Both the position numbers and the translations under genes were made by a program. The notes below the pieces were generated by a model, which was given only the letters and a program-made list of their open reading frames with translations, had not been told where the DNA came from and ran no database searches. This document shows, piece by piece, positions 8,072 through 56,079 of a stretch of 64,000 bases of DNA; within the stretch, counting starts at the first letter, position 1; each line of letters begins with the position of its first letter. The DNA is from Phycisphaerae bacterium (GTDB lineage: Bacteria > Planctomycetota > Phycisphaerae > FEN-1346 > JAACEH01), in the NCBI GenBank assembly GCA_041690105.1, contig JAWLHX010000003.1, forward strand, positions 29,126 to 93,125. The letters are read 5' to 3'.

Positions 8072-8395
8072 CCGGCGGCCGTTGTCGTTCTAAAGCCCCC
8101 TGCACTGCAGGGGGATGTCGTTGCCGTTGCTTCTTTTGATTTAAACTCGCGGAGTTGCTGCGTTTCGATCCCCCGGCAATGCCGGGGGCTTCAAAAGGCC
8201 TTCGCCACGGTGGGCGTTGCCGTTGCCGCGGCCGTTGTCGTTCTAAAGCCCCCTGCACTGCAGGGGGATGTCGTTACCGTTGCTTTCTTTTGATTTAAAA
8301 CTCGCGGAGTTGCTGCGTTGCGATCCCCCGGCAATGCCGGGGGCTTCAAAGGCAACGGCAATGGCAAAGGCAACAGAAACGGGCCGAGGGGCCAG
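8072..8395. repeat. Tandem duplication (2 x ~150 bp) of a GC-rich two-hairpin intergenic repeat element (type 1)
   Basis: Unit GGCCGTTGTCGTTCTAAAGCCCCCTGCACTGCAGGGGGATGTCGTTGCCGTTGCTTCTTTTGATTTAAACTCGCGGAGTTGCTGCGTTTCGATCCCCCGGCAATGCCGGGGGCTTCAAA occurs at ~8077-8215 and ~8229-8365 at >90% identity. Contains two 9-bp-stem hairpins (CCCCCTGCA/TGCAGGGGG and CCCCCGGCA/TGCCGGGGG) and GTTGCCGTTG / CAACGGCAA runs. Confidence 0.8.
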
Positions 8396-8462: not shown

Positions 8463-9596
8463 TTAATCGGCCGTTGCGGTGCTCCAGGTGATGGTGACTG
8501 GTTGGCCGTCGGGCATTATGTCTACCAGTATGTTGCCCTCGGCGATGCGCGTGGTCAGGGCATTTGCCGGGGCGGCGTCGCCCTGGACTGTGGCCCGGGC
8601 GCTGGTGGCCTGTGGGGCGGGGATGACTACGGTCAGCGGCACCTGGAAGACGTCGGCCGGCTCAAGACGGGTGGCAATGCTGAGGCGGATTGAATTCTCA
8701 CCGCGTTCGATAACCTCCAGCCTGGCTGCCTCGCGGGCCCGAATGTAACGGCCAATCGTCCCCATGGGCGCTATCCAGATGGTATCTTTCTGCGAATCGA
8801 GCCACTGGCAGTGAGTGCGGAATTCGTCTTTGCTCTTAAAGGGCGACCAGCCGGCACCGACGATGGAATGAATGATGGCCACAAACCAGCCGCCCTCGTC
8901 GCGGCAGGCGATGATTCTCTGCCGTGTCCGCTCGTCGTCCCACTGCCGCCTGTCGGTATTGCCGTAGCCGGCGGTTGTCATAATCGGAAATTGAGCCGAA
9001 CTGCGGATGAAGTAATGCTTTTCGAGGATCTTCCGTCGCACGTTTTCGGTGGCCCTTGAGCCGCCTGGCAGAGCATAGGTTACGGGCGTGACATCGGTCT
9101 TCTCCCTGATCAGCCGCCAGGACTCGTTAATCAGGAAACCGAGCCGCTCGTCGGTGGCCTCGTGCAGCTTTTCTTTGATGGCCCCATGGGTGCCGATTTC
9201 GTGCCCGGCGGCATGCAATTCCTTGGCCTGCTGCCAGGAGATCATGTTGCCGCCCATGGCCGGGTTTTCCATGTGCATGGGGATGAGAAAGAAGGTGCCC
9301 TTCAGGCCTAGAGGATCGAGAATTTCGCGGGCGTCGGCCACCTCCTGCCGAAAGCCATCGTCGAAGGTCAGGCTGAGTGCGCCCCGGCGATTTCCGTAAT
9401 AGTCGGCAATTCTCGGCATGATCTGCTCCTTCTGGCCTTCATCTTGGGGCGCAGCCAGTTTAACGACGGGCGCTGCGGCCGTGGCCAGCGCGGGATCGGT
9501 GCTGGCGGTGGTCCCGGCATCATCGGGCCGGCATCCTGTGCTTACGATACTGAACAATACGACCATCATGGCCAGCGTTGCGATAGTTCTCAGCAT
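8463..9596 (-). CDS. Polysaccharide deacetylase (CE4 / NodB-homology) lipoprotein
   Basis: NodB motif LTFDDGFRQ; N-terminal lipoprotein-like signal (LFSIVSTGC). Confidence 0.8.
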   Translation of the reverse strand: MLRTIATLAMMVVLFSIVSTGCRPDDAGTTASTDPALATAAAPVVKLAAPQDEGQKEQIMPRIADYYGNRRGALSLTFDDGFRQEVADAREILDPLGLKGTFFLIPMHMENPAMGGNMISWQQAKELHAAGHEIGTHGAIKEKLHEATDERLGFLINESWRLIREKTDVTPVTYALPGGSRATENVRRKILEKHYFIRSSAQFPIMTTAGYGNTDRRQWDDERTRQRIIACRDEGGWFVAIIHSIVGAGWSPFKSKDEFRTHCQWLDSQKDTIWIAPMGTIGRYIRAREAARLEVIERGENSIRLSIATRLEPADVFQVPLTVVIPAPQATSARATVQGDAAPANALTTRIAEGNILVDIMPDGQPVTITWSTATAD

Positions 9597-10471
9597 GGTG
9601 TTCCTTCTTCAATAAGCCTGGCGATAGCTATGCCGCTCTCTCCGGCGCAGCTATACAGCAGAAAAGTCTGGTTATCATCCTCGAAAATACACGGATCGCG
9701 CAGTTGGCGGACGCGACCTGGGGCCGCAGCGTAGCGCGACTCCTCCAGCGGCAGGTCGGCACCCTCGTAATCGGTCTCGGGCTCCAGCAGCGAGACAGGC
9801 TCGGTGGTCTGCCATTTGTGCCAGTCGCCCTCAAGAGAAACCGTCGTCAGCAGCAGATGTTCCGGGCAATCGCCCGCCCTGGAAAAGATGATCCGCAGAA
9901 TGTTGCCGCACTTCTGCACGGCTACGTGACGTTGTCGCGGCAGAATGGCCGGACCGGGTTCAAACGCGGTATGGCCATCGGGTGAGCGCATAATCAGCCC
10001 GCTCTTGTGGCCGCCCATGGTAACGCAATAAAAGGCACCCTGATGCTGGAATACGCGGAAGTAGCTTGGGCCGAGGTCGACCGTGTCGGCGGTGAAGTTC
10101 AGACCATCGGCCGAGCTGGCCAGAAAGGTGCGCTGGGCCCCGGGCACCGGCACATGAAAATACATGCGCAGCTGGCGGGCCTGATGATCGAGATGCACGT
10201 CGGGCGAGGCCACGTGGCTGTAACCGCAGGTCTGCTCGAGCCGCAAGGTGCCGGGGCGGTAGATGCGCCACGGTCCGGCAATGTCGTCGGCGTAGGCCAG
10301 GCGTATGTACTGCCCGCCATGGTGGGCGAAGTAGAGGTAGTAGCGGCCAAGGGGCTTGGGCAGCCAGTTGGGCACCCTGATGAGCGAAGGCCCGTTAATG
10401 TTGGGGCCGATGGAATCGTCGAGAGCGGGATGAATTATCGGATTTACGGGCAGGCGTTCTACCGTCAGCAA
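9590..10471 (-). CDS. Glycoside-hydrolase-like beta-propeller protein (GH43/GH130-like fold), probable non-ATG (TTG) start
   Basis: Only the C-terminal ~290 aa of track ORF 9590..11110 look protein-like (PVNPIIHPALDDSIGPNINGPSLIRVP...YLYFAHHGGQYIRLAYADDIAGPWRIY...RDPCIFEDDNQTFLLYSC). The upstream part overlaps uppP and is H/R/P-rich nonsense. First in-frame start after the uppP stop is TTG at ~10471; the stop overlaps the deacetylase start by 7 nt. Confidence 0.45.
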   Translation of the reverse strand: MLTVERLPVNPIIHPALDDSIGPNINGPSLIRVPNWLPKPLGRYYLYFAHHGGQYIRLAYADDIAGPWRIYRPGTLRLEQTCGYSHVASPDVHLDHQARQLRMYFHVPVPGAQRTFLASSADGLNFTADTVDLGPSYFRVFQHQGAFYCVTMGGHKSGLIMRSPDGHTAFEPGPAILPRQRHVAVQKCGNILRIIFSRAGDCPEHLLLTTVSLEGDWHKWQTTEPVSLLEPETDYEGADLPLEESRYAAAPGRVRQLRDPCIFEDDNQTFLLYSCAGESGIAIARLIEEGTPC

Positions 10472-14174: not shown

Positions 14175-15740
14175 ATGAAGACTCACATGGTCCGTTTTCA
14201 CCAGGAGGAGGAGCTTCCGCTAATGGCGAACCGCCTTTACCCGATCATCATAATGACTGCCATTCTGACTGTCGCCGCCGGCTGCACCGAAGGTTTCGGT
14301 CCTTCCAGAGCCGGGGCGGGCGAGCCTTCAACCTTGCACTATAGTCGCGCAGCCTCCGAGCGGCCGCGCACAAATATGGCTTCACGGGTGGCAGAGCTTG
14401 GGCCACAGTCGACGCTCGACGATTACATCCAGCACGCCCTGCTGAACAATCCGCAGCTTGAGGCCCAGTTCAAACGGTGGAAGGCGGCCCTGGAAGGCGG
14501 CACCATCGAGGGCACGCTGCCCGATCCGCAGTTCACCTATACCTACTTTATTGTACGCATGGGGGCCGGCCCGGCCATGGAGCAGCGGCAGCGCATGGCC
14601 CTGACGCAGGTCTTTCCGTGGTTCGGCAAGTTGCGGCTGCGCAGCCAGCAGGCCATGGACCTGGCCGCCGCCGAGGAGCAGAGGTTCCAGGCTCAGCGTC
14701 TGCAGCTCATCTACCAGGTTGCCGATGCCTGGTACGATTATTATTATCTGGCCCGCTCGGTGGAGAATACCCGGCAGGTGCGCCAGTTGACCGAGCACAT
14801 GGAAGGCGTGGCCCGGGCCCGCTACAGGGCTGCCGATACGGATCATGCCGATGTCATCCGAGCCCAGATAGAGCTGGGCCGCCTGGATGATCAGCTGGCT
14901 TCGCAGGAGGATTTGCGTCGCCCGCTGGTGGCCAGGCTGAATGCTCTGCTTAACCGGCCGACGGGGGCAGAGCTGCCCGTGCCGCCGGCCATGGAGCCGG
15001 CCCAGGTGCAGCTTGACGAGGAGCAGTTGCTGCAGTTAGCCGACAGGGCGAACCCCGAGTTGCAGGCCATTGATCATGAGAATGCGAGTCGCCGACGGGC
15101 GGTCGATCTGGCTCGCAAGCAGTATTATCCGGATGTAATGCTGGGCCTGGAGTGGATGGACATGACCGTAATGCCCGGCAGGCGTGGCGTATCCAGCGAA
15201 GACAATTGGACGTTAATGGCGGGCATCAACGTGCCCATCTGGCGGCACAAGTACGCGGCCCAGGAGCGTCAGGCCCGTTTCAGGCACATGGCCGGGCAGC
15301 GCCAGCGGGAGAATGCAGCCAATCAGCTTCAGGCCGAATTGCGGCGTGTGTTCTACGACATCCGCGACGCCGAGCGGCGCATCAACCTCTACGGCGACAC
15401 CCTGTTGCCGCGAGCCCGCGATTCGGTGCAGGTGACCGAGGCCGGCTTCCGGGCCGGTACGTCCACATTCCTTGATCTGCTGGATTCGCTGCGCGTACTG
15501 CTGGAGTTCGAATTGTCGTATCAGCAGGCCGTTGCCATGCATGGCCGCCGTCTGGCCGAGTTGCAGAAGCTGAGCGGCAGCACGGCCGCGCCTTTTTCCG
15601 GGAACGTTCCAGAGTCCCCGTCCGTTCAGACAGGTGATGCCGGCTTGCAGGCAGAGCCGGTGAAGGTGGATTCTATTGTTCCGGAAGAAGGTGGCGATGA
15701 ACTTCGAGTGGATGAACGGACTGTTACGGAAGGGCAGTAA
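14175..15740 (+). CDS. Outer-membrane efflux protein (TolC/CusC/CzcC family)
   Basis: Lipoprotein signal (LTVAAGCTEG; the true start may be the internal ATG ~14223). Two long coiled-coil/helical repeats typical of outer-membrane factors; first gene of the efflux operon. Confidence 0.75.
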   Translation: MKTHMVRFHQEEELPLMANRLYPIIIMTAILTVAAGCTEGFGPSRAGAGEPSTLHYSRAASERPRTNMASRVAELGPQSTLDDYIQHALLNNPQLEAQFKRWKAALEGGTIEGTLPDPQFTYTYFIVRMGAGPAMEQRQRMALTQVFPWFGKLRLRSQQAMDLAAAEEQRFQAQRLQLIYQVADAWYDYYYLARSVENTRQVRQLTEHMEGVARARYRAADTDHADVIRAQIELGRLDDQLASQEDLRRPLVARLNALLNRPTGAELPVPPAMEPAQVQLDEEQLLQLADRANPELQAIDHENASRRRAVDLARKQYYPDVMLGLEWMDMTVMPGRRGVSSEDNWTLMAGINVPIWRHKYAAQERQARFRHMAGQRQRENAANQLQAELRRVFYDIRDAERRINLYGDTLLPRARDSVQVTEAGFRAGTSTFLDLLDSLRVLLEFELSYQQAVAMHGRRLAELQKLSGSTAAPFSGNVPESPSVQTGDAGLQAEPVKVDSIVPEEGGDELRVDERTVTEGQ

Positions 15741-21600: not shown

Positions 21601-22776
21601 CCCATGGGTGTAAAGGTGACCGGGCCCAGCCTGGAGGCCATCGAAGACTTTGCCCGGCAGATCGAAACTCATCTGAAGGACGTGCCGACCGTCATGGCCG
21701 ATGCCGTAGTGGCCGACCGTATTGTCGGTACGCCATACCTGGAGATTGTGCCCGACCGCAACGCCCTTAAGCGCTACGGCGTCACCATCGACGCTTTTCA
21801 GCAGGTGGTGGAGGTGGCCATCGGCGGCCGCCCGGTAACCCGCACAGTGGAGGGCCGCGAACGTTTCCCGGTACGCGTCCGTTACCCGCGCGAGTTGCGC
21901 AGTTCGGTCGATGATATCGACGGCATTCTCTTCAGCGGGTCGGGCGGGGCCCAGATTCCGCTGGCCCAACTGGCCGAGATTCGCTACGTCCGCGGCCCGC
22001 AGATGATCCGCAGCGAAGACACCTTCCTGACCGGCTACGTGCTGTTCGACATGCTGCCGGGCAATGCCGAGGTGGACGTGGTAGAGGCGGCCCGCGATCA
22101 TCTGCAAAAAATGGAAGAGCAGGGCCGCTTGCTGCGCCCACGCGGAGTGAGCTACGAGTTTGCCGGCTCCTACCAGAACCAGGTGCGGGCCTCGCAGCGG
22201 CTCATGCTTATACTGCCGCTGGCCCTGCTGGTGATCTTCCTGATCATTTACCTGCAGTTTCGCCGCACGACGACCACGCTGCTGGTCTTCTCGGGCATTG
22301 CTGTCGCCTGGGCCGGCGGATTCATCATGCTGTGGCTCTACGATCAGCCCTGGTTCCTGGAGTTCAGCGTCTTCGGGGTGCCCATGCGAACGCTCTTTCA
22401 GGTGGGCACGGTCAACCTGAGCGTGGCCGTCTGGGTAGGCTTTCTGGCCCTTTTCAGCATTGCTACCGACGACGGCGTGGTCATGGGAACTTACCTGGAA
22501 CAGGTCTTCCGCGAAGATCGCCCGCGCAGCATCAGCGACATACGCAAAATGGTCGTGCTGGCCGGCAGTCGCCGCGTTCGGGCCTGCCTGATGACCACCC
22601 TGACCACCACGCTGGCCCTGCTGCCGGTCATGACCTCGCAGGGACGGGGCAGCGACATCATGTTGCCCATGGCCATACCCACCTTTGGCGGCATGACCAT
22701 CGCCATCATCACCATGCTGGTGGTGCCGGTGCTTTACGGCTGGCTCCAGGAGCGCAAGTTCCGCCGCTCGCAGTAG
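18655..22776 (+). CDS. Heavy-metal efflux RND permease (CusA/CzcA, HME family), unusually long (1373 aa)
   Basis: 12-TM RND architecture with HME-family blocks (VVENMLRHL, AIAIGTVVDVGIVIVEN); about 330 extra residues in periplasmic loops compared with ~1045-aa CusA/CzcA. The antisense 1027-aa ORF is a shadow. Confidence 0.85.
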   Translation: MRFGTLSDNLQQNNLTPEQRGLIGRLIGFCLKNRLVVFLSTLLIAGLGLLVAPFDWQIEGVARYPIPVDAIPDIGENQQIVFTSWPGRSPQDVEDQVTYPLTVALQGLPQVKVVRSVSMFGFSSIYVIFNDNVDFYWSRSRVLEKLRSLQADTLPDDVRPVLGPDATPLGQIYWYTLQGRDADGNPAGGWDLEELRTLQDWYVRYWLQAAEGVSEVASVGGYQREYQIDVDPDAMRAYGVTLNDVYRAVKGSNLDVGARSVEINRVEYFIRGIGFIKDTSDIEDSVIRVNADNVPVVVSNVARVSLGPAERRGALDKGGSQAVGGVVVARYGSNPLAVIRNVKQRIEETRESLPTKAVVDFGQVDRRQVADYAAEHGFRAFADDRSMDHEAWLAHLRSQPREQWPAWVNTSTVTVVPFYDRTGLIYETLGTLNSALVQQVLICTIVVILMVMHLRSSILISGMLPLSILLTFIGMRLVGVDANVVSLAGIAIAIGTVVDVGIVIVENMLRHLSEAAPEESRLNVLHRAAAEHGGAVVTASLTTIIGFLPVFTLTAAEGKMFRPLAWTNTLASVASIIIALTILPAAAYVLFCIKHQDAKLRRHVLHGLLVAVGVVVGFLLSWWAGLALLFFGSFYIIRDILPQRAARWAPRLANLLAVAFVGILLSWYWEPLGVERGLLRNIIFVGGILGLLLGSAWLFQHYYTRILAWCLDHKAAFLSLPLAIAVAGLLIWLGPKMFLGPLDATPQMSDAQYQQASLLERGRYNWNRSVDRVIGGFKKDLAQIRNEPWADDSAPADRWISNRGIVARFKWTLARAWNGIGREFMPPLDEGSYLYMPTTMAHASIGEVLDAMGKQDMAFQNIPEVESVVGKLGRAESALDPAPTSMIETVINYKSEYITDRNGRRVNFRYDRSSGQFARDDRGELIPDPRGRPFRQWRDHIRTPDDIWDEILMAAEITGTTSAPRLQPIAARIVMLQSGMRAPMGVKVTGPSLEAIEDFARQIETHLKDVPTVMADAVVADRIVGTPYLEIVPDRNALKRYGVTIDAFQQVVEVAIGGRPVTRTVEGRERFPVRVRYPRELRSSVDDIDGILFSGSGGAQIPLAQLAEIRYVRGPQMIRSEDTFLTGYVLFDMLPGNAEVDVVEAARDHLQKMEEQGRLLRPRGVSYEFAGSYQNQVRASQRLMLILPLALLVIFLIIYLQFRRTTTTLLVFSGIAVAWAGGFIMLWLYDQPWFLEFSVFGVPMRTLFQVGTVNLSVAVWVGFLALFSIATDDGVVMGTYLEQVFREDRPRSISDIRKMVVLAGSRRVRACLMTTLTTTLALLPVMTSQGRGSDIMLPMAIPTFGGMTIAIITMLVVPVLYGWLQERKFRRSQ

Positions 22777-22780
22777 AAGC

Positions 22781-23040
22781 CCCGTTCCTCTTCTCCTCCC
22801 GCCCTGAGCCCTGTCGAAGGGCTTGACGGGAGAGGAGTTTCTTTACACTTCTCCCTTGACGGGAGAAGGTGGACCGTAGGGCCGGATGAGGGTGCGGCCG
22901 TGGGCGCAAGAGCGAGCAATTTTCCGCGCAGCCGTCACCCCCACCTGTCTCCGGCATGTGCCGGAGACATCCTCCCCCGTCAAGGGGGAGGGGTTAGCGG
23001 CAACGGCAACGACGAACGGCAACGGCAATTGCTCTTGACA
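22781..23040. repeat. Type-2 GC-rich intergenic repeat element (copy A, with internal 40-bp duplication) plus CAACGGCAACG run
   Basis: Shares with 38750-38950: CCCGCCCTGAGC...CGAAGGGCTTGACGGGAGA...AGGTGGNCCGTAGGGCCGGATGAGGGTG...CACCCCCACCTGTCTCCG...CGGAGACATCCTCCCCCGTCAAGGGGGAGGGGTT...GGCAACGGC. Contains the hairpin CCTCCCCC-GTCAA-GGGGGAGG and the palindrome GTCTCCGGCATGTGCCGGAGAC. Confidence 0.75.
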
Positions 23041-23229: not shown

Positions 23230-23325
23230 ATGGCCCGCGGGGCAATTATTGGAGCACTCAGCCTTTACCTGGATTTCATCAACCTCTTCCTGCTGCTGCT
23301 GCGGATTTTCGGCCGCAGGCGGTAA
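23230..23325 (+). CDS. Candidate small hydrophobic protein (31 aa, single TM, C-terminal RRR)
   Basis: ATG at 23230 with GAAGGGA purine-rich region ~12 nt upstream; encodes MARGAIIGALSLYLDFINLFLLLLRIFGRRR; ends 54 nt before the ubiD-like start. Below the ORF-track size cut-off. Confidence 0.3.
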   Translation: MARGAIIGALSLYLDFINLFLLLLRIFGRRR

Positions 23326-23379
23326 CAGGGTGCAATTTCCGAGGCAGAACGTTCGGCTGCAGCAAGTTGGAGGCGCCCC

Positions 23380-37751: not shown

Positions 37752-38722
37752 GCGCGGGCGGAGAGTCTTCCGGCGCCGGCCAGGCTGGCGGCAAGCCAAT
37801 TGTGGGGGCGGCCGAGTCGGCATCGCGCGGCAGCCGTGGTGCGGTCGATCTGAAGGCGGTGCTTGGTGAGGTTTCGGGCTTGGTTGACAATCGGCTCGGG
37901 GAGTTGCTGAAGTCGCCCGATCCGCAGTGCGCAAGCATTTATGAGGCCATGTTTTACAGCCTGATGGCGGGCGGCAAACGGTTCCGGCCGGCACTTGTTC
38001 TCTTGACCAGTCGCATGCTTGGGGCAGCCGATGATGTTGCTTTGCCGGCGGCCTGCGCCATCGAGATGGTTCATACTTACAGCCTGATTCACGATGATCT
38101 GCCGGCCATGGATAATGACGACCTGCGTCGCGGCCGGCCGACAAGTCACAAGGTTTTCGGCGAGGCCATGGCTATTCTGGCCGGCGATGCCCTGCTGACG
38201 GAGGCATTCGTGGTGCTTTCGACGCGAGTGGCCGATGGGCAGCGGTCGGCCGCCCTGGTGCGGGAATTGTCGACTGCGGCCGGCGCGTGCGGCATGGTAG
38301 GCGGCCAGGTGCTGGACCTGGAGAGCGAGGGCCGTGAGGGCCGGGACTGGCCGGTGGAGTCGATTCATCGGCGGAAGACGGGGCAGCTTATTCTGGCGGC
38401 AGTGCGGCTGGGGGCTGTCTCGGCGGGTGCTGATGAGGGGACACTGGATCGGCTTAGCGAATACGGTAGGCAGGTTGGGCTGGCTTTTCAGATTGCCGAT
38501 GACGTTCTGGATGCTCGGGGTACGGCCGAGAGCCTGGGCAAGACGGCGGGCAAGGACGCTGCCAGCGGCAAACGGACCTATGTTTCGGTATATGGCCTGG
38601 AGGAGTCGGAGCGGCGGGCCGATGCCGCCCTGGCGGCAGCAATCGAGGCTTTGGAGCCATTCGGGGCGGCTGCGGAGCCCCTCAGGGCTCTGGCCCGTTT
38701 TTGTGTGGAGCGAAAGAGCTAG
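37748..38722 (+). CDS. ispA: Polyprenyl diphosphate synthase (farnesyl/geranylgeranyl diphosphate synthase, IspA family)
   Basis: FARM motif LIHDDLPAMDNDDLRRG and second DDxxD motif (FQIADDVLD); ATGA overlap with xseB; classic xseB-ispA-dxs order. Confidence 0.85.
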   Translation: MSAGGESSGAGQAGGKPIVGAAESASRGSRGAVDLKAVLGEVSGLVDNRLGELLKSPDPQCASIYEAMFYSLMAGGKRFRPALVLLTSRMLGAADDVALPAACAIEMVHTYSLIHDDLPAMDNDDLRRGRPTSHKVFGEAMAILAGDALLTEAFVVLSTRVADGQRSAALVRELSTAAGACGMVGGQVLDLESEGREGRDWPVESIHRRKTGQLILAAVRLGAVSAGADEGTLDRLSEYGRQVGLAFQIADDVLDARGTAESLGKTAGKDAASGKRTYVSVYGLEESERRADAALAAAIEALEPFGAAAEPLRALARFCVERKS

Positions 38723-38749
38723 AAGTCGTACCATATTGCTGGTCGGCTT

Positions 38750-38950
38750 CTGTCGTTACCCTTCTCACCCGCCCTGAGCTCCGCCGAAGGGCTTGACGGG
38801 AGAAGGTGGCCCGTAGGGCCGGATGAGGGTGAGGTTGTTGAGAGGGCGAAGAGCTTTCCTCGCGGCCGACACCCCCACCTGTCTCCGCTTCGCGGAGACA
38901 TCCTCCCCCGTCAAGGGGGAGGGGTTTAACGGCAACGGCTGAGGCTGAGA
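38750..38950. repeat. Type-2 GC-rich intergenic repeat element (copy B) between ispA and dxs
   Basis: ~85% identical over shared blocks to 22781-23040, including the CCTCCCCC-GTCAA-GGGGGAGG hairpin, the CACCCCCACCTGTCTCCG block and the terminal AACGGCAACGGC. Confidence 0.75.
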
Positions 38951-39018: not shown

Positions 39019-40941
39019 TTGATTCTTGAACAGATAAAATCTCCAGAGGACCTTGGCGGGCTGACTGCGGCTCAGTTGCAGAGTCTGGCAGGCGAGATCC
39101 GTCAGCGGATAACCGACGTCGTGGCTCAGACCGGTGGTCATCTGGCTAGCAATCTGGGTGTGGTCGAACTTACCCTGGCCCTGCATCGGGTGTTCGACTT
39201 CAAGCAGGACCACCTGGTTTTCGATGTCGGTCATCAGTGCTACACTCATAAACTGCTGACGGGTCGCGAGGCCGAATTCAACACTCTGCGTCAGGAGGGC
39301 GGGCTGAGCGGCTTCCCGAACCGGCGCGAGAGTCCGCTCTACGATCGGTTTACCACCGGCCATGCGGGGGTCAGCATTTCGACCGCCCTGGGGTTGGCCC
39401 TGGCCGATAAGGCCGCCGGCCGGCCGCATCGTACGGTGGCGGTCATTGGCGATGGGGCCCTGGGCAGCGGCGTGGCTCTGGAAGGCCTGAACCATGCCGG
39501 CAGCGTGAAGGCGAATCTGCTGGTTATCCTGAATGACAATAAGATGTGCATCAGCGGGACGGTGGGGGCTCTGGCTCATGCCTTCACCCGGGCCCGGACG
39601 AGCGATTTGTATCGCGACTTCAGCAAAGAGGTCCGGCGGATGGTGCAGACCATGCCGGTCATCGGCAGCCAGTTGCGGCAAACGCTATCGACGGTAAAGG
39701 ATGCCATCAAGGACGTGATTGTGCCGGACCATGCTTTCGAGCACTTCGGCTTTCGGGTTCTGGGGCCGGTCAACGGTCATAATCTGCGGGAGTTGCTGCG
39801 GACGCTGGAAGAGGTGCGGACGATAAGCGGCCCGATAATGCTGCACGTCTGCACGGAGAAGGGTCACGGATTTGACCCTGCGGTGCGCAATCCGGCCGAT
39901 TATCATAGCGCTTCGCCCTTCATCGAGCAGAATGGCAAGGTTGTTCCGCGTGCGGCGGCCTCACAACAACCGGCCTGGGGCGATGCGGCTGCTCGGATCA
40001 TTCTGGAGATGGCTTCTGCGGATGAGCGGGTAATGGCCATAACCGCGGCCATGCCGGCCGGCACGGGGCTTTGTGCCTTCGAGGAGCAGTATCCGGAGCG
40101 TTTTTTCGATGCCGGCATAGCCGAGAGCCACGCCGTGGCCATGGCCGCTGGTCTGGCGGCCGGCGGCATGCGTCCGGTGTGCGCCATTTATTCCACCTTC
40201 CTGCAGCGATCGTACGATCAGTTGTTCCACGAGCTTGCCCTGAACGAGAATCTGCCTGTGCTGATGCTGGTGGACCGGGCCGGGCTGGTTGGGGCCGACG
40301 GCATGACGCACCAGGGGCTTTACGACATTGCCTACATGCGGAGTCTGCCGAACCTTGTTCTGGCGGCTCCGGCCGATGAGGGGGAGCTTGGGGGTTTGAT
40401 TCGCCTGGGGCTGGAGATTGAGCAGTCGATGGCCATTCGTTATCCGCGTGACGTTGTTCCTGCCGGCGACCTGTGCCAGGCCGAGGGCGAGCATCCGATG
40501 CGCCTGGGTCGGGCGGCAGTCATTCGCCCTGGTACCGACGGGGCTATTGTGGCCTATGGTTCGACCGTTCCGGCGGCCCTTGGTGCTGCTGACTTACTGG
40601 CCGCCGAGGGGCTGAAGGTGGCGGTCATCAGCGGGCGTTTTGCCAAACCGCTGGACGAGGATTTGATGGCCGAACTGGCCGAGGTGCAGCCCTGGCTGAT
40701 AACGGTTGAGGACGGTTGCCAGGCGGGTGGTTTCGGCAGTGCCGTTCTGGAATCGCTTCAGCGGCGGGGCTTGGCCGGCAAGCTGGCCGATATTGTGGCT
40801 GTGCCGGATGAGCTTGTTGAGCATGCCTCGCGGGGCGTATTGCTGGAACGATTTGATATGACGGCCACGGGCCTGGCGCGGCGGGCCAGGCGGGTAATGG
40901 CCGCAAGCGACGACGTAAAGCAGTCCGGCGACAACAAATAG
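39019..40941 (+). CDS. dxs: 1-deoxy-D-xylulose-5-phosphate synthase
   Basis: N-terminal Dxs signature (ILEQIKSPEDL...GGHLASNLGVVELTLALHRVFD...DHLVFDVGHQCYTHKLLTGR), TPP-binding GDG motif, 640 aa. Confidence 0.9.
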   Translation: MILEQIKSPEDLGGLTAAQLQSLAGEIRQRITDVVAQTGGHLASNLGVVELTLALHRVFDFKQDHLVFDVGHQCYTHKLLTGREAEFNTLRQEGGLSGFPNRRESPLYDRFTTGHAGVSISTALGLALADKAAGRPHRTVAVIGDGALGSGVALEGLNHAGSVKANLLVILNDNKMCISGTVGALAHAFTRARTSDLYRDFSKEVRRMVQTMPVIGSQLRQTLSTVKDAIKDVIVPDHAFEHFGFRVLGPVNGHNLRELLRTLEEVRTISGPIMLHVCTEKGHGFDPAVRNPADYHSASPFIEQNGKVVPRAAASQQPAWGDAAARIILEMASADERVMAITAAMPAGTGLCAFEEQYPERFFDAGIAESHAVAMAAGLAAGGMRPVCAIYSTFLQRSYDQLFHELALNENLPVLMLVDRAGLVGADGMTHQGLYDIAYMRSLPNLVLAAPADEGELGGLIRLGLEIEQSMAIRYPRDVVPAGDLCQAEGEHPMRLGRAAVIRPGTDGAIVAYGSTVPAALGAADLLAAEGLKVAVISGRFAKPLDEDLMAELAEVQPWLITVEDGCQAGGFGSAVLESLQRRGLAGKLADIVAVPDELVEHASRGVLLERFDMTATGLARRARRVMAASDDVKQSGDNK

Positions 40942-43289: not shown

Positions 43290-43575
43290 GTGCTTGCGGC
43301 GGTAGATTAAGAGGCAAGGCAACGGCAGAAGAAACTTGCGTTTTTTGGCGTGCGGACATGGCAGATAAGCACCCACAAACGAGTTTGTGGGTGGCACCCG
43401 CGGGGGATTAATACGGCAACGGCAGAAGAAACGGCGTCCCCCGGCAGTGCCGGGGGCTTCAACGGCAACATCAACGGCAACGGCAACAGCAGCAACAATC
43501 GCAGAGCAGCAATAATCGCAGAGCAGCGGCAGTCGCAGAGATGCAGCAGCGCTTGGTATGGCGGTGGCAATTAGC
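43290..43575. repeat. ~290-bp repeat-rich intergenic region inside the por operon (type-1 hairpin fragment, direct repeats, 11-bp-stem hairpin)
   Basis: GCACCCACAAACGAGTTTGTGGGTGGC perfect hairpin; CAACGGCAGAAGAAAC x2; CCCCCGGCAGTGCCGGGGGCTTCAACGGCAAC (type-1 hairpin); AATCGCAGAGCAGC x2; CAACGGCAAC runs. Confidence 0.75.
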
Positions 43576-45069: not shown

Positions 45070-45400
45070 ACTTCGTCAGACCATGGCACAGATTTATCCT
45101 TCTTCTAACCATCTTCCGTTTGGCCTTTGAAGCCCCCGGCACTGCCGGGGGATTCGAATGTCAGCAAACTCCGCGGGTCCAAAACAAAGAAGCAACGGCA
45201 ACGACATCCCCCTGCAGTGCAGGGGGCTTTAGAACGACAACGGCCGCGACAACGGCAAGGGCCTCCCGCGGCGAATTGTTTTAAGCCCCCGGCACTGCCG
45301 GGGGATCGAACGTCAGCATTCTCTGCAATTCGAATGAGCACCCGGCGGCACAAAACATTAACGTCAACAGCAACAATCAACGGTCGCGGCGGCGGTAGAG
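45070..45400. repeat. Type-1 two-hairpin repeat element in reverse orientation, plus a second partial copy
   Basis: 45121-45250 is the reverse complement (~85-90% identity) of the 8077-8215 unit (GAAGCCCCCGGCACTGCCGGGGGAT...AAGAAGCAACGGCAACGACATCCCCCTGCAGTGCAGGGGGCTTTAGAACGACAACGGCC). A second hairpin copy lies at ~45285-45310 (AAGCCCCCGGCACTGCCGGGGGATCGAACG), and CAACAGCAACAATCAACGG runs follow. Confidence 0.8.
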
Positions 45401-53901: not shown

Positions 53902-54600
53902 ATGAAGTATGCAACTGGGGCCGTCGGAATCGTGTTGTTGCTGCTGGTAGCAACTGGCAGCGCTTCCGGGGCTTTGACCGACTGGGGCAGCGGTCAGGTC
54001 AGAATGGTAACTGACGCCGATGAAGGGTTCATGCCGGGGCGTGAGATTTTACAGGCCTGGCACAAATACGATGCCGGCACGCACTATTTCCGGATTGACC
54101 TGGAGACGGCGCCCATGGGGCCGCCGCATTTGCCGCCGAGCTTTGCCGGCATTTATGGCTTTGCCATCAATACGGACCTTGCCAGCGGGGCCGACGGCTT
54201 TCATCCGTACCTGGCTTATGCCCCGAACGTGCAGAACATCGATTATCTGATCGATGCCCACTATGAATCGTTTTCGCCGTACCCGAATCCGGCCCAGTTG
54301 CTGTACAGCCATTATCACGACTGGGAGGATACGGCGTTTGCGGTCGAGCCGCTGGACAGCGTTGGCGGGCAGTTCCAGCGCAGCGGACCGAGCACGCTGG
54401 AGTGGTCCATTGCGGATGATCTGATCGGCAGCCCGGGAGCCACGAGGTTCAGCTGGTGCGCCTACAGTCTGGATGCCGGCAGCGAGACGGCCAAGTATGA
54501 CCTGGCCTGCTCGTTCATACCGGAACCTCTGACAATGCTGGCTTTCGGTATGGGGCTGGCTGGCGTGGGCGGTTATGTGCGCCGCAGGATTAAAGGCTGA
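53902..54600 (+). CDS. PEP-CTERM-anchored secreted protein, paralog A (uncharacterised ~200-aa domain)
   Basis: Signal peptide (VGIVLLLLVATGSASGA); C-terminal IPEPLTMLAFGMGLAGVGGYVRRRIKG PEP-CTERM sorting signal; ~55% identical to paralog B. Confidence 0.75.
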   Translation: MKYATGAVGIVLLLLVATGSASGALTDWGSGQVRMVTDADEGFMPGREILQAWHKYDAGTHYFRIDLETAPMGPPHLPPSFAGIYGFAINTDLASGADGFHPYLAYAPNVQNIDYLIDAHYESFSPYPNPAQLLYSHYHDWEDTAFAVEPLDSVGGQFQRSGPSTLEWSIADDLIGSPGATRFSWCAYSLDAGSETAKYDLACSFIPEPLTMLAFGMGLAGVGGYVRRRIKG

Positions 54601-55380
54601 AGATGAGAGTTTTGTGAAGAGGTTGAAACTTGCCGACCCGGCCGCGGGAGCAGTGTCCCGGGGGTCGGCAAGAGCTTGGAGTGGTGCAGGCTGTAACGTG
54701 CTGCGAGTGCTGTACATCAGAATGCGGCATTGAAGCGTAGGACTATGGGGATAGTTGCTGCAAGCGCTTTGAATGCCTGTCGTACGAGGGAAAACCGAGG
54801 GGGACTGCGGCCGGCGTTTCTGGTTGCTGCCTGGCGACTTGTGCCATTGTGGTGCGGGTTGCGGCAGTGCCGAAAGCCGTCGGTCGCGGGCGACGGAAGA
54901 ATCTTCGCCTGCTGTCATCTGGGGCGGAGGCCGATCGGAACGGAGCGATCGGTTTGGCGTGTCCGTCGTCGGGTGCGACTGCGGAAAAGGATTTTGCGCA
55001 GTTCACCGTCTTGCTGAGTGCGGGTGACTGATTCTGCTGAAGTTACTGGCAGGGTTGGCGCCGCCGGCATGGCCGCAGAGCGGCCGGAATGGTTCCTTCG
55101 TACGAAAGGCGTTGACATGAGCGTGATGTTCGGCAGGAAACTTACCAGCATTACAGTTGCCCGCCATCGCGAGTACCCTCTGTGGGTATGGCCACGCCGC
55201 GTACGAGTGTGTGAACCTGACCAGCCAATCGAAGCCGAAGCATCAGTTGGACAGACGGCCTGTGTTTGTGGAGGGTCTGCCTGCTGGAAAACTCTGCGCA
55301 GAACATCGGCCGGGGATAAACTCACTTGCGGTCACGACGGGCGTGGCCAGAAGAAACAACTCGTTAAGGGGGACACTGTA

Positions 55381-56079
55381 ATGAACAAACTGCGTGTACT
55401 GACAACTTTGATTGTGCTGTTGCTGATGTGTAGCCCATCGTGGGCGGCGTTGACAGATTGGGGCGTTGGAGCTGTTGAGCATGTTGCCGATCCGGATGAG
55501 GGCTTCATGGCCGGCCGCGAAATTCTTAATGCGTGGCACAAGTACGACGTGGAGAGCCAGATGCATTTCTTCAAGATGGAGCTGAAGGCTGCTCCGATGG
55601 GGCCTGTCCATCTGGAGCCGAGCTTCGCCGGCATCTACGGATTTGCCCTGAATACCGACCTTGGCACGGGTATTGACGGCTTTACGCCGGGCTTGACCTA
55701 TGCTCCGAATGTGCCTTCGATTGACTATTTGATTGACGCGCATTACGAGTACGCGGGCATTCTGGCTGCTCCGCCTGCCTTCCAGGTTGCCCATTATCAT
55801 GAATGGGACGAGCCGCTTTTTGTTACCGAGAATCTGCTCTCGATTGGCGGCGACTATGCACGCACCGGCAAAGTTCTGGAATGGGCCGTGCCAGACAGCC
55901 TGATCGGCAACCCCGGTTCCGAGCGGTTCTCCTGGTGCGCCTACACGCTTGACGGCGGCAGCGAGACGGCCAAGTATGACGTGGCCTGCTCGGTTATTCC
56001 GGAGCCGCTGACCATGGCTGGTCTTGGTCTGGGGCTGGCCGGCGTAGCGGGCTACCTGCGTCGTCGCAAAGCGGCCTGA
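55381..56079 (+). CDS. PEP-CTERM-anchored secreted protein, paralog B
   Basis: Start at ATG 55381 (MNKLRVLTTLIVLLLMCSPSWAALTDWG; AGGGGGA RBS); the track ORF begins at 55018 in the same frame. C-terminal IPEPLTMAGLGLGLAGVAGYLRRRKAA. Shared blocks with A: ALTDWG, EGFMxGREILxAWHKYD, PSFAGIYGFAxNTDL, IDYLIDAHYE, RFSWCAYxLDxGSETAKYD. Confidence 0.75.
   Translation: MNKLRVLTTLIVLLLMCSPSWAALTDWGVGAVEHVADPDEGFMAGREILNAWHKYDVESQMHFFKMELKAAPMGPVHLEPSFAGIYGFALNTDLGTGIDGFTPGLTYAPNVPSIDYLIDAHYEYAGILAAPPAFQVAHYHEWDEPLFVTENLLSIGGDYARTGKVLEWAVPDSLIGNPGSERFSWCAYTLDGGSETAKYDVACSVIPEPLTMAGLGLGLAGVAGYLRRRKAA

Follow-up and report, generated by a model that had tools for sequence, protein, structure and literature searches.

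The GC-rich repeat that lies 3' of an AcrB/CusA-family RND gene in a 64,000-nucleotide stretch of a Phycisphaerae bacterium genome (contig JAWLHX010000003.1; here called the window, with positions counted from its first letter) is a genuine non-coding, intergenic element. It is probably a triplex-motif pair of the BoxC kind, known also as the potential intrastrand triplex (PIT) element, in which each copy is an inverted pair of class II units and the second loop is bridged by a hairpin. The repeat, labelled type 2 in an earlier note on this DNA, is not a new family and belongs to the known BoxC/PIT kind; the hairpins in loop 2 are what is unusual. That first reading overlooked the defining property of the repeat, which is that its halves are triplex motifs arranged as an inverted pair.

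Two copies of the element are found in the window. Copy A begins 17 nt after the TAG stop codon of the RND gene (22774-22776), with homology to copy B starting at about 22793, and copy B begins 38 nt after a stop codon in the spacer between ispA and dxs (dxs at 39019-40941). Both are co-oriented with the flanking genes on the + strand. The features that had been described for the RND-gene-adjacent repeat are all present in the sequence: the hairpin CCTCCCCC/GGGGGAGG with a GTCAA loop is at 22971-22991 in A and 38902-38922 in B, the palindrome GTCTCCGGCATGTGCCGGAGAC is perfect over 22 nt (22947-22968) and has a shorter counterpart in B, GTCTCCGCTTCGCGGAGAC (38881-38899), and GGCAAC runs are at 22999-23028 in A and 38928-38939 in B. 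The near-copy proposed 16 kb away is borne out by formal alignment, with a mean column identity of 79% (MAFFT, alignment A1), and a repeat search returns A/B blocks at 92-100% identity. Compared segment by segment, the structural blocks are 77-100% identical: 100% for the right-hand Y2-loop-R2 hairpin and for RH', 96% for the loop-2 hairpin with its third segment, 81% for the left hairpin and 77% for the palindrome. The central spacer is marginal at 59%, and both flanks, at 43-46%, are at the level of shuffled sequence. For the 21-mer hairpin, 0.02 occurrences would be expected in the window and there are two. Judged by sequence, copies A and B are homologous. The element-specific limits are about 22793-22995 for A, with a tail to 23028, and 38760-38926 for B, with a tail to 38939; an extent to 23040 is too long, as the specific homology stops at about 22995, or at 23010 when the hexamer run is included. 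What had been read as an internal duplication of about 40 bp is an insertion of 33 nt that B lacks, through which A gains a second, plain hairpin CTTCTCCC-TTGAC-GGGAGAAGG at 22848-22869; the truly repeated part is only CTTGACGGGAGA(G/A)G.

On its G-rich strand each unit runs from a homopyrimidine arm (Y) through loop 1 to the complementary homopurine arm (R), and then through loop 2 to a reverse-Hoogsteen segment (RH) that is the mirror image of R, with A either kept or swapped for T. The two halves are on opposite strands with their G-rich third segments pointing inward, and the whole element is in this way a long imperfect palindrome. A triplex scan recognises three of the window's four units as perfect class II units, where a shuffled window gives 0.25. 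Their Y and R arms are fully complementary (CTTCTCCC/GGGAGAAG at 22848-22868, CCTCCCCC/GGGGGAGG in both right units), and their third stems follow the antiparallel rules G.G-C, A.A-T and T.A-T with no triplet mismatch. The two right units, on the - strand and ending at 22936 and 38870, have Y CCTCCCCC, R GGGGGAGG and RH GGTGGGGG. Loop 1 is 5 nt in three units, inside the published short-loop limits (1-6 nt in ITxF, 0-10 nt in Hoyne et al.), and loop 2 falls outside them, being 14-16 nt in the left units, where it is T followed by GG(A/C)CCGTAGGGCC, and 22-25 nt in the right units, where a palindrome of 19-22 nt stands between AT and A. In the window this loop is a closed hairpin with only 1-2 unpaired nucleotides at each end. 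Folded as single-stranded DNA, the right units give a hairpin, 1 nt, a closed hairpin and a free RH tail (z -5.3 and -6.1).

The order of bases in the third segment was determined for all perfect Y/R hairpins in the more than 130 loci carrying the unit, with the third segment taken within 8 nt. There are 522 unique asymmetric hairpins, and the third segment is a perfect mirror in 162 of them and a perfect direct repeat in 19. Third segments match their own arm in 157 cases; with foreign arms matched for length and A content, the number averages 31 and does not exceed 42. Of 61 distinct arms the mirror is favoured by 30 and the direct order by none. The strongly asymmetric arms are decisive between the two orders: GAGAGGGGGA is followed by AGGGGGAGAG, AAAGGGGGA by AGGGGGATTT (with two G-runs in total), AAGGAGGGG by GGGGAGGTT, GGGGGAAGG by GGATGGGGG and, in the window itself, GGGAGAAGG by GGATGAGGG. 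In the 142 unique perfect units (35 distinct arms), loop 2 is 3 nt long in 105, and the RH base opposite an A of R is A 136 times and T 97 times. A mirror repeat cannot be produced by template copying and does not match the sites read by dimeric or tandem DNA-binding proteins. The layout is that of an antiparallel purine-motif triple helix built from G.G-C, A.A-T and T.A-T triplets.

The window's Dxs is 100% identical to an NCBI entry on a 95-kb contig. The closest relative after that has 84% Dxs identity (locus L120) and the next are at about 67%; these are labelled as Planctomycetes or Phycisphaerae metagenome-assembled genomes (MAGs). The gene order rny, ymdB, xseA, xseB, ispA, dxs, nadK, fdx, POR is kept in five related contigs at the lower identity. 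When a profile built from four pairs (alignment A3) was used to search the fetched loci, full-length pairs were found in many of them, with E down to 1e-25, including the xseB-ispA spacers of L135 (3578-3732), L134 (8899-9019) and L137 (5479-5597), a site between two POR subunit genes in L136 (14258-14405), and L121. Weaker profile matches come from about two dozen loci in other phyla. In the window the xseB and ispA genes overlap, leaving no spacer, and the pair sits between ispA and dxs instead; the ispA-dxs spacers of L134 and L135 are 74-81 bp and empty. The pair family is old in this clade and its positions change, through turnover or movement, because in related genomes homologous pairs occupy other spacers of this operon. 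The ispA-dxs spacer of L120 holds a different repeat, and because of this there is no clean empty site from which a precise insertion boundary or target duplication could be defined.

These relatives show compensatory changes in all three segments (Y, R and RH) at once. In the left unit the window has Y C-T-TCTCCC, R GGGAGA-A-GG and RH GG-A-TGAGGG, and the marked positions are C, G and G in L135. In the right unit CCTCCCCC/GGGGGAGG/GGTGGGGG of the window stands against CTTCCCCC/GGGGGAAG/GATGGGGG in L134 (C/G/G against T/A/A). The left units of L134, L135 and L137 have the stems CCCTCTCCC/GGGAGAGGG/GGGTGAGGG with a loop 2 of 14 nt. In the right-hand loop 2 five different hairpin sequences are found (A, B, L135, L134/L137 and L136), each of them closed. 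The same pattern is seen more widely: 77 of 121 copies of the 21-mer hairpin have a loop 2 of 3-6 nt and a perfect third segment, and the 17 unique long second loops (14-45 nt) are almost all closed hairpins of unrelated sequence, with a mean z of -3.5.

The outer left hairpin of copy A (22793..22837, + strand, identified by folding and 81% identical to 38760-38806 of B) has the Y arm CTCCTCCCG at 22793-22801 (mapped coordinates), a nested mini-hairpin GCCCTGAGCCCTGTCGAAGGGC inside loop 1 at 22801-22822, and TTGAC followed by the purine arm GGGAGAGGAG at 22823-22837. The left class II unit follows at 22848..22894 (+), found by the triplex scan with no triplet mismatch, and consists of Y CTTCTCCC (22848-55), loop 1 TTGAC, R GGGAGAAGG (22861-69), a loop 2 made of T and the mini-hairpin GGACCGTAGGGCC (22871-83), and the reverse-Hoogsteen segment GGATGAGGGTG (22884-94), which mirrors R with A changed to T; the stems returned by the scan for this unit are Y CTTCTCCC, R GGGAGAAG and RH GATGAGGG. 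The central spacer between the inverted units (22895..22935) is partly self-complementary and in the fold prolongs the RH/RH' stem. The right unit (22936..22991, - strand, no mismatches, DNA fold z -6.1) has Y CCTCCCCC, loop 1 TTGAC and R GGGGGAGG at 22971-22991, the perfect 22-nt palindrome at 22947-22968 as its loop 2, and RH GGTGGGGGTG, the complement of CACCCCCACC, at 22936-22945. The (GGCAAC)n hexamer run at 22999..23028 (+) is an adjoining module outside the triplex pair.

In copy B the left unit (38760..38831, +) opens with a bulged Y arm, CCTTCTCACCCG (38760-71), and a nested mini-hairpin, GCCCTGAGCTCCGCCGAAGGGC (38771-92), followed by TTGAC, R GGGAGAAGG (38798-806), the loop-2 mini-hairpin GGCCCGTAGGGCC (38808-20) and RH GGATGAGGGTG (38821-31). 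The strict triplex scan missed this unit because of the bulge and a loop 1 of 26 nt; its mirror relation was read directly, and the third stem then fits (GGGAGAAGG/GGATGAGGG). The central spacer is at 38832..38869. The right unit (38870..38922, -) has no mismatches and a DNA fold z of -5.3, with Y CCTCCCCC, TTGAC and R GGGGGAGG at 38902-22, the loop-2 hairpin GTCTCCGCTTCGCGGAGAC at 38881-99, and RH GGTGGGGGTG as the complement of 38870-79. A short hexamer run, AACGGCAACGGC, follows at 38928..38939 (+).

The 21-mer hairpin is present in at least 119 loci when 185,579 species genomes are searched. The matches listed come from Alpha-, Beta-, Gamma- and Deltaproteobacteria, Nitrospirota, Nitrospinota, Dehalococcoidia, Planctomycetaceae, Firmicutes, Actinobacteria, Armatimonadetes, Deferribacteres, Leptospirales and Aminicenantes; nearly the same unit is found in more than ten phyla. 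Nearly all of these matches share more than the hairpin, with the consensus tCACCCCCACCCtaAC-CCTCCCCC-GTCAA-GGGGGAGG-Gga, and a second unit in inverted orientation is often nearby; no match among those listed covers the full length of the window element. A metagenome scan with GTAGGGCCGGATGAGGGTG returned 11 loci. Seven of them contain the left-unit module GGGAGAAGG-T-GGCCCGTAGGGCC-GGATGAGGGTG, L121 with a complete symmetric pair; the other four are coding coincidences, and no full type-2 copy was among the 11. The metagenome loci L124, L125 and L129 contain arrays of units.

Some of the loci place the unit in other settings. In IMG/VR, 13 viral or proviral contigs (L138-L150) carry the 21-mer hairpin in 14 matches, 11 of which have a perfect third segment GG(A/T)GGGGG after a linker of about 3-6 nt; the matches in L147, L148 and L149 have a near-match third segment with one deviation. 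Predicted viral DNA can therefore carry triplex units, in contrast to the report for E. coli. In Dehalococcoidia (L020, L026, L040, L103 and L116) the unit lies inside a longer inverted repeat (GAAACTATCTCAAAAC ... GTTTTGAGATAGTTTC), which suggests a larger element, like a miniature inverted-repeat transposable element (MITE), that contains the triplex motif. In L003, L034, L036, L041 and L086, from several MAGs, the unit has about 35 nt of conserved sequence on its 5' side (CCAATACTGTTCAGATA..TTAGTT) and an inverted partner after it; this may be a distinct composite family.

The E. coli repeat has been described under three names, at first BoxC, later PIT element (Hoyne et al. 2000; Hoyne & Maher 2002) and finally TM_ECO (PMC4666352), in the work of Bergler and Bachellier in the 1990s, Hoyne, Edwards, Viari & Maher 2000, Hoyne & Maher 2002 and Holder et al. 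2015. Four classes of intrastrand triplex are recognised, class II being the order Y, R, reverse-Hoogsteen strand (Holder et al. 2015, PMC4666352). As a single strand TM_ECO forms a stable triplex in vitro, as seen by circular dichroism (CD) and nuclear magnetic resonance (PMC4666352), and the literature reports that it blocks DNA polymerase in vitro and that local rearrangement of spacers is elevated.

Where the DNA becomes single-stranded, at a replication fork, in a transcription bubble or in an extruded cruciform, each half would fold into its Watson-Crick hairpin, the two halves on opposite strands. The third segment could then occupy the major groove, antiparallel to the purine arm, with G.G-C and T.A-T or A.A-T triplets as the result, and the closed mini-hairpins of loop 2 would let it still start at the hairpin foot. 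Selection, or a copying mechanism, would act on this fold and not on a gene-specific function, and the pair may be copied or relocated as a unit between intergenic spacers by a trans-acting route. In mRNA the hairpins alone could form, with stabilisation of upstream transcripts at their 3' ends as a possible side effect. The likeliest phenotype, as for BoxC, would be local replication pausing and elevated spacer rearrangement, not regulation of the RND pump or dxs; any effect on neighbouring genes would be generic at most, by way of mRNA hairpins or fork pausing.

It is possible that the triplex fold itself, beyond the hairpins, is under selection in living cells across more than ten phyla, because Y, R and RH compensate for one another, the third segment is mirror-ordered, and independently acquired mini-hairpins in loop 2 keep the third strand at the hairpin foot. 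We hold this only tentatively, and a function of the triplex in vivo is likewise rather doubtful. Several points weigh against the triplex-pair interpretation or parts of it. In E. coli the triplex was not detected in vivo by dimethyl sulfate footprinting and the double-stranded form is an ordinary duplex, nor was any BoxC/PIT function seen in promoter, terminator, polymerase or conjugation assays (both PMC4666352); the fold may never matter in cells. Within the family, the outer hairpin of A lacks a matching third segment, the left unit of B has a 2-nt bulge in its Y arm and a loop 1 of 26 nt, and the right unit of L135 has one triplet mismatch. The 64-kb window provides just two copies from the source genome, and their central spacers (59%) are barely above chance, leaving the shared nested hairpins as the main sign that the element was copied as a unit.

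Movement of the pair between spacers could instead be of the REPIN type, in which a doublet of REP-type hairpins is mobilised in trans by a RAYT, an IS200/IS605-like Y1 HUH enzyme, with the G-rich segment as its guide or recognition sequence. The inverted intergenic doublet in several copies per genome, the occupation of different spacers in related genomes and the arrays in L124, L125 and L129 would all fit such a system. The hairpin with its adjoining conserved segment also resembles the ends of IS200/IS605 elements. The proteins do not fit: the 48 main open reading frames (ORFs) of the window contain no transposase, integrase or Y1_Tnp Pfam match, and all-against-all clustering of ORFs from about 130 unit-bearing loci gave no recurrent family near the unit beyond ABC ATPases and other housekeeping enzymes. 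Neither does the sequence, for no REP/RAYT model predicts a mirror relation in which A becomes A or T, and REP sequences are usually lineage-specific, whereas this unit is nearly the same in more than ten phyla. No conserved 5' tetranucleotide of the GTAG type, as in REP units, is present at the hairpin foot in the consensus of the listed loci, and the co-varying mirror segment is foreign to a REP unit. The target-site duplications that had been suggested as a check are absent, with no direct repeat of 6 nt or more flanking A or B, and the element as a whole is an inverted repeat without the defined transposase-type termini of a MITE. In E. coli no link to mobile elements was found either (Holder et al., PMC4666352). 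Mobilisation of this type is therefore unlikely.

An intercistronic or 3'-UTR element acting as RNA, whether as stabiliser, processing site, attenuator or small RNA transcribed with the RND pump and ispA-dxs, would account for the co-orientation of both copies with their genes 17 and 38 nt past a stop codon, for RNA folds far stabler than those of shuffled sequences (z -4.1 to -6.5), and for relatives' palindromes that stay paired through different sequences. Both strands fold equally well, as a DNA palindrome would, and the mirror-image third segment is inexplicable by Watson-Crick or G-U pairing. Rfam 15 gives no match at gathering score in the window, with only sub-threshold chance matches at E up to 10, and an Rfam family was rejected on that count. 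No GC-rich hairpin with a T-run was found within A or B, nor a terminator-like T-run after the element, and an intrinsic terminator was rejected; a promoter was also considered and rejected. Purine-motif triplexes are reported not to form in RNA, and PIT elements have no promoter or terminator activity in E. coli (both PMC4666352). A functional RNA is thus an improbable reading.

The purine arm and the G-rich segment might also form a G-quadruplex that competes with the hairpin, as in the switch proposed for E. coli (Kaplan et al. 2016). In E. coli the units GGGAGAGGG-TTA-GGGTGAGGG qualify as canonical quadruplex motifs, there is published CD evidence for such a hairpin/quadruplex switch (PMC5100583; discussed in PMC8044849), and the window units are G-rich. 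Copies A and B have no canonical motif (four runs of G3+ at 1-7 nt spacing) on either strand, and hairpins of 14-25 nt stand between their G-runs. A quadruplex gives no reason for the interruptions to be in mirror and not direct order, arms with two G-runs in total, in which a quadruplex is impossible, still obey the rule (AAAGGGGGA then AGGGGGATTT), and the pyrimidine arm co-varies as well. This makes the switch very improbable here. Chance low-complexity sequence without family relationship, which C-run and G-run-rich hairpins in a 62% GC genome might bring to mind, is refuted by the results, namely A/B blocks 96-100% identical, a 21-mer seen twice where 0.02 is expected, a four-copy profile that finds full-length pairs at E down to 1e-25, and three triplex motifs against 0.25 in shuffled windows.

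The hexamer run is a different matter from the triplex-motif pair. With up to one mismatch, GGCAACGGCAAC has 9 matches in the window against 0.7 expected, in five intergenic spacers (8120-8374, 22999-23029, 43476-43487 and 45191-45202, also 14718-14729), almost all of them intergenic and in both orientations. The run adjoins type-1 palindromes, adjoins type-2 pairs and sometimes stands alone without either type of hairpin. It is not found beside the homologous pairs in L134, L135 and L137, and outside the hexamers the A/B tails align only as well as shuffled sequence does. The run is an intergenic module of this genome in its own right, part of a BIME-like mosaic and not an end of the element, and looks like a genome-specific filler module. 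The shared GTTGCC/GGCAAC ends had been taken as a sign that both repeat types use one integration mechanism; as the run is a separate module, they provide no evidence of this. The distinction between the types holds, as the type-1 repeats are plain palindromes, CCCCC(T/G)GCAnTGC(A/C)GGGGG, and because they lack a mirror-image third segment they are not triplex motifs. They are found at 8075-8376, where there are two tandem units of about 154 nt each, at 43431-43489 and at 45103-45306, between a (GTTGCC)n run and a (GGCAAC)n run.

Other features were seen in the window and in the spacers of its relatives. Upstream of the RND gene are an OEP gene and an HlyD gene that is CusB-like and has heavy-metal-binding domains. 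Between copy A and ubiD is a hydrophobic ORF of 31 codons (23231-23326, +; MARGAIIGALSLYLDFINLFLLLLRIFGRRR) without a Pfam match, and downstream of it a menaquinone-type cluster of ubiD, ubiE, a UbiX-like flavoprotein, UbiA and an MqnC-like gene. A 188-nt direct repeat of 76% identity (54397-54584 and 55876-56063) lies in ORFs 53902-54600 and 55018-56079, which have no Pfam match and are probably paralogous gene ends in a polysaccharide-export cluster. Directly 3' of the ispA stop codon the motif TAGAAGTCGTACCATA is present in the window (38720-38745), L135 (4740-4765) and L120 (27-50), and as the variant GTCGTACAATACC in L134 and L137, being conserved though the rest of these spacers differs completely. 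In L136 the xseB-ispA and ispA-dxs spacers (8735-8815 and 9800-9895) each contain a palindromic element of about 95 nt (GGTGGCATGGCGATACGC...TCGCCATGCCACCC), and L120 has three GGCACCCTGG repeats and a hairpin at 60-190. Operon spacers in the related genomes seem to be general landing places for repeats. The literature was searched for the raw repeat sequence strings with no match, and the 'multicopy nucleotide sequences' of Geobacter were set aside, the supplements of PMC2700814 and PMC2996986 containing no relevant motif match and the Dxs homologues pointing to a Planctomycetota/Phycisphaerae-like MAG as the source.

For BoxC/PIT the triplex is known from work in vitro, and neither a triplex in vivo nor a regulatory activity has been found. 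The window locus and its relatives add comparative evidence, namely covariation of the third strand with the hairpin and a tolerance of long loops that is confined to those folded shut, a signature that is normally taken as proof of selected structure. They also extend the triplex-motif family to Planctomycetota, Nitrospirota, Chloroflexota and other phyla. For annotation, the repeat is best described as a generic intergenic structural repeat, not as a regulator specific to the RND pump or dxs and not as a new family of mobile elements. If the fold is indeed under selection, the BoxC-like pair would be a structural element of single-stranded DNA with a real role, which could be recognition by a copying or repair enzyme that spreads it, or programmed pausing of forks or transcription, and the hairpin-bridged form would be a subclass that is widespread yet was beyond the reach of earlier triplex surveys. 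There is nothing out of the ordinary in the locus itself; the comparative evidence for third-strand selection and the hairpin-bridged subclass merit the attention of specialists.

Among known systems, REP, BIME and REPIN sequences resemble the window element as short GC-rich extragenic palindromes after stop codons inside operons, many of them in inverted doublets and in mosaics with other short modules. REPs differ in having no mirror-image third segment and in being lineage-specific, where the window unit is nearly identical across phyla, and no RAYT was found in the window ORFs or near the unit. H-DNA shares the purine-motif antiparallel third strand and the mirror symmetry of the purine strand, and is associated with polymerase stalling and instability. 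It arises from duplex by strand disproportionation, whereas the duplex part of the window triplex is a hairpin of one strand and needs single-stranded DNA.

The closest counterpart is BoxC/PIT. The published TM_ECO pattern, CCCTCNCCC N3-6 GGGNGAGGG N3 GGGNGAGGG, has 3610 occurrences in 262 proteobacterial genomes, always intergenic and not on mobile elements, and five inverted pairs are among the 23 sites of MG1655 (PMC4666352). Other triplex motifs, in Cyanobacteria, Thermus, Rhodospirillum and others, follow the same class and triplet rules and are commoner than in scrambled genomes (2015 survey, PMC4666352); no mention of Planctomycetes was found in that paper. Units bridged by hairpins like those of the window would have gone unlisted given the loop limits of the surveys, and searches limited to loops of 6-10 nt or less undercount such motifs. 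The window differs from the E. coli repeat in several respects. Its arms are CTTCTCCC and CCTCCCCC in place of CCCTCNCCC, and the TM_ECO pattern is accordingly not matched; its loop 2 is 14-25 nt with its own hairpin, where that of BoxC is 3 nt; its outer left hairpin has a further hairpin nested in loop 1; it has a spacer of about 40 nt against 16 nt, and the whole pair measures about 170-200 bp against about 85 bp; and the host is a Planctomycetota-like MAG and not a member of the Proteobacteria. In both, a C-rich arm, a loop of 3-6 nt, a G-rich arm, a second loop and a mirror-image G-rich arm follow one another, the pairs (22848-22991 and 38760-38922 in the window) are intergenic and inverted with the third stems inward, there is no known associated mobility gene, and occurrence varies between related genomes. 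In the E. coli pair between hrpB and mrcB (L132:249-335), which starts 13 nt after the hrpB stop codon, the first half CCCTCTCCC-TGT-GGGAGAGGG-CCG-GGGTGAGGG is followed by a 16-nt spacer and then by ACCCTCACCC-TAA-CCCTCTCCC-TCAA-GGGAGAGGG. The window element has the layout of this pair, and both start a few nucleotides after a stop codon.

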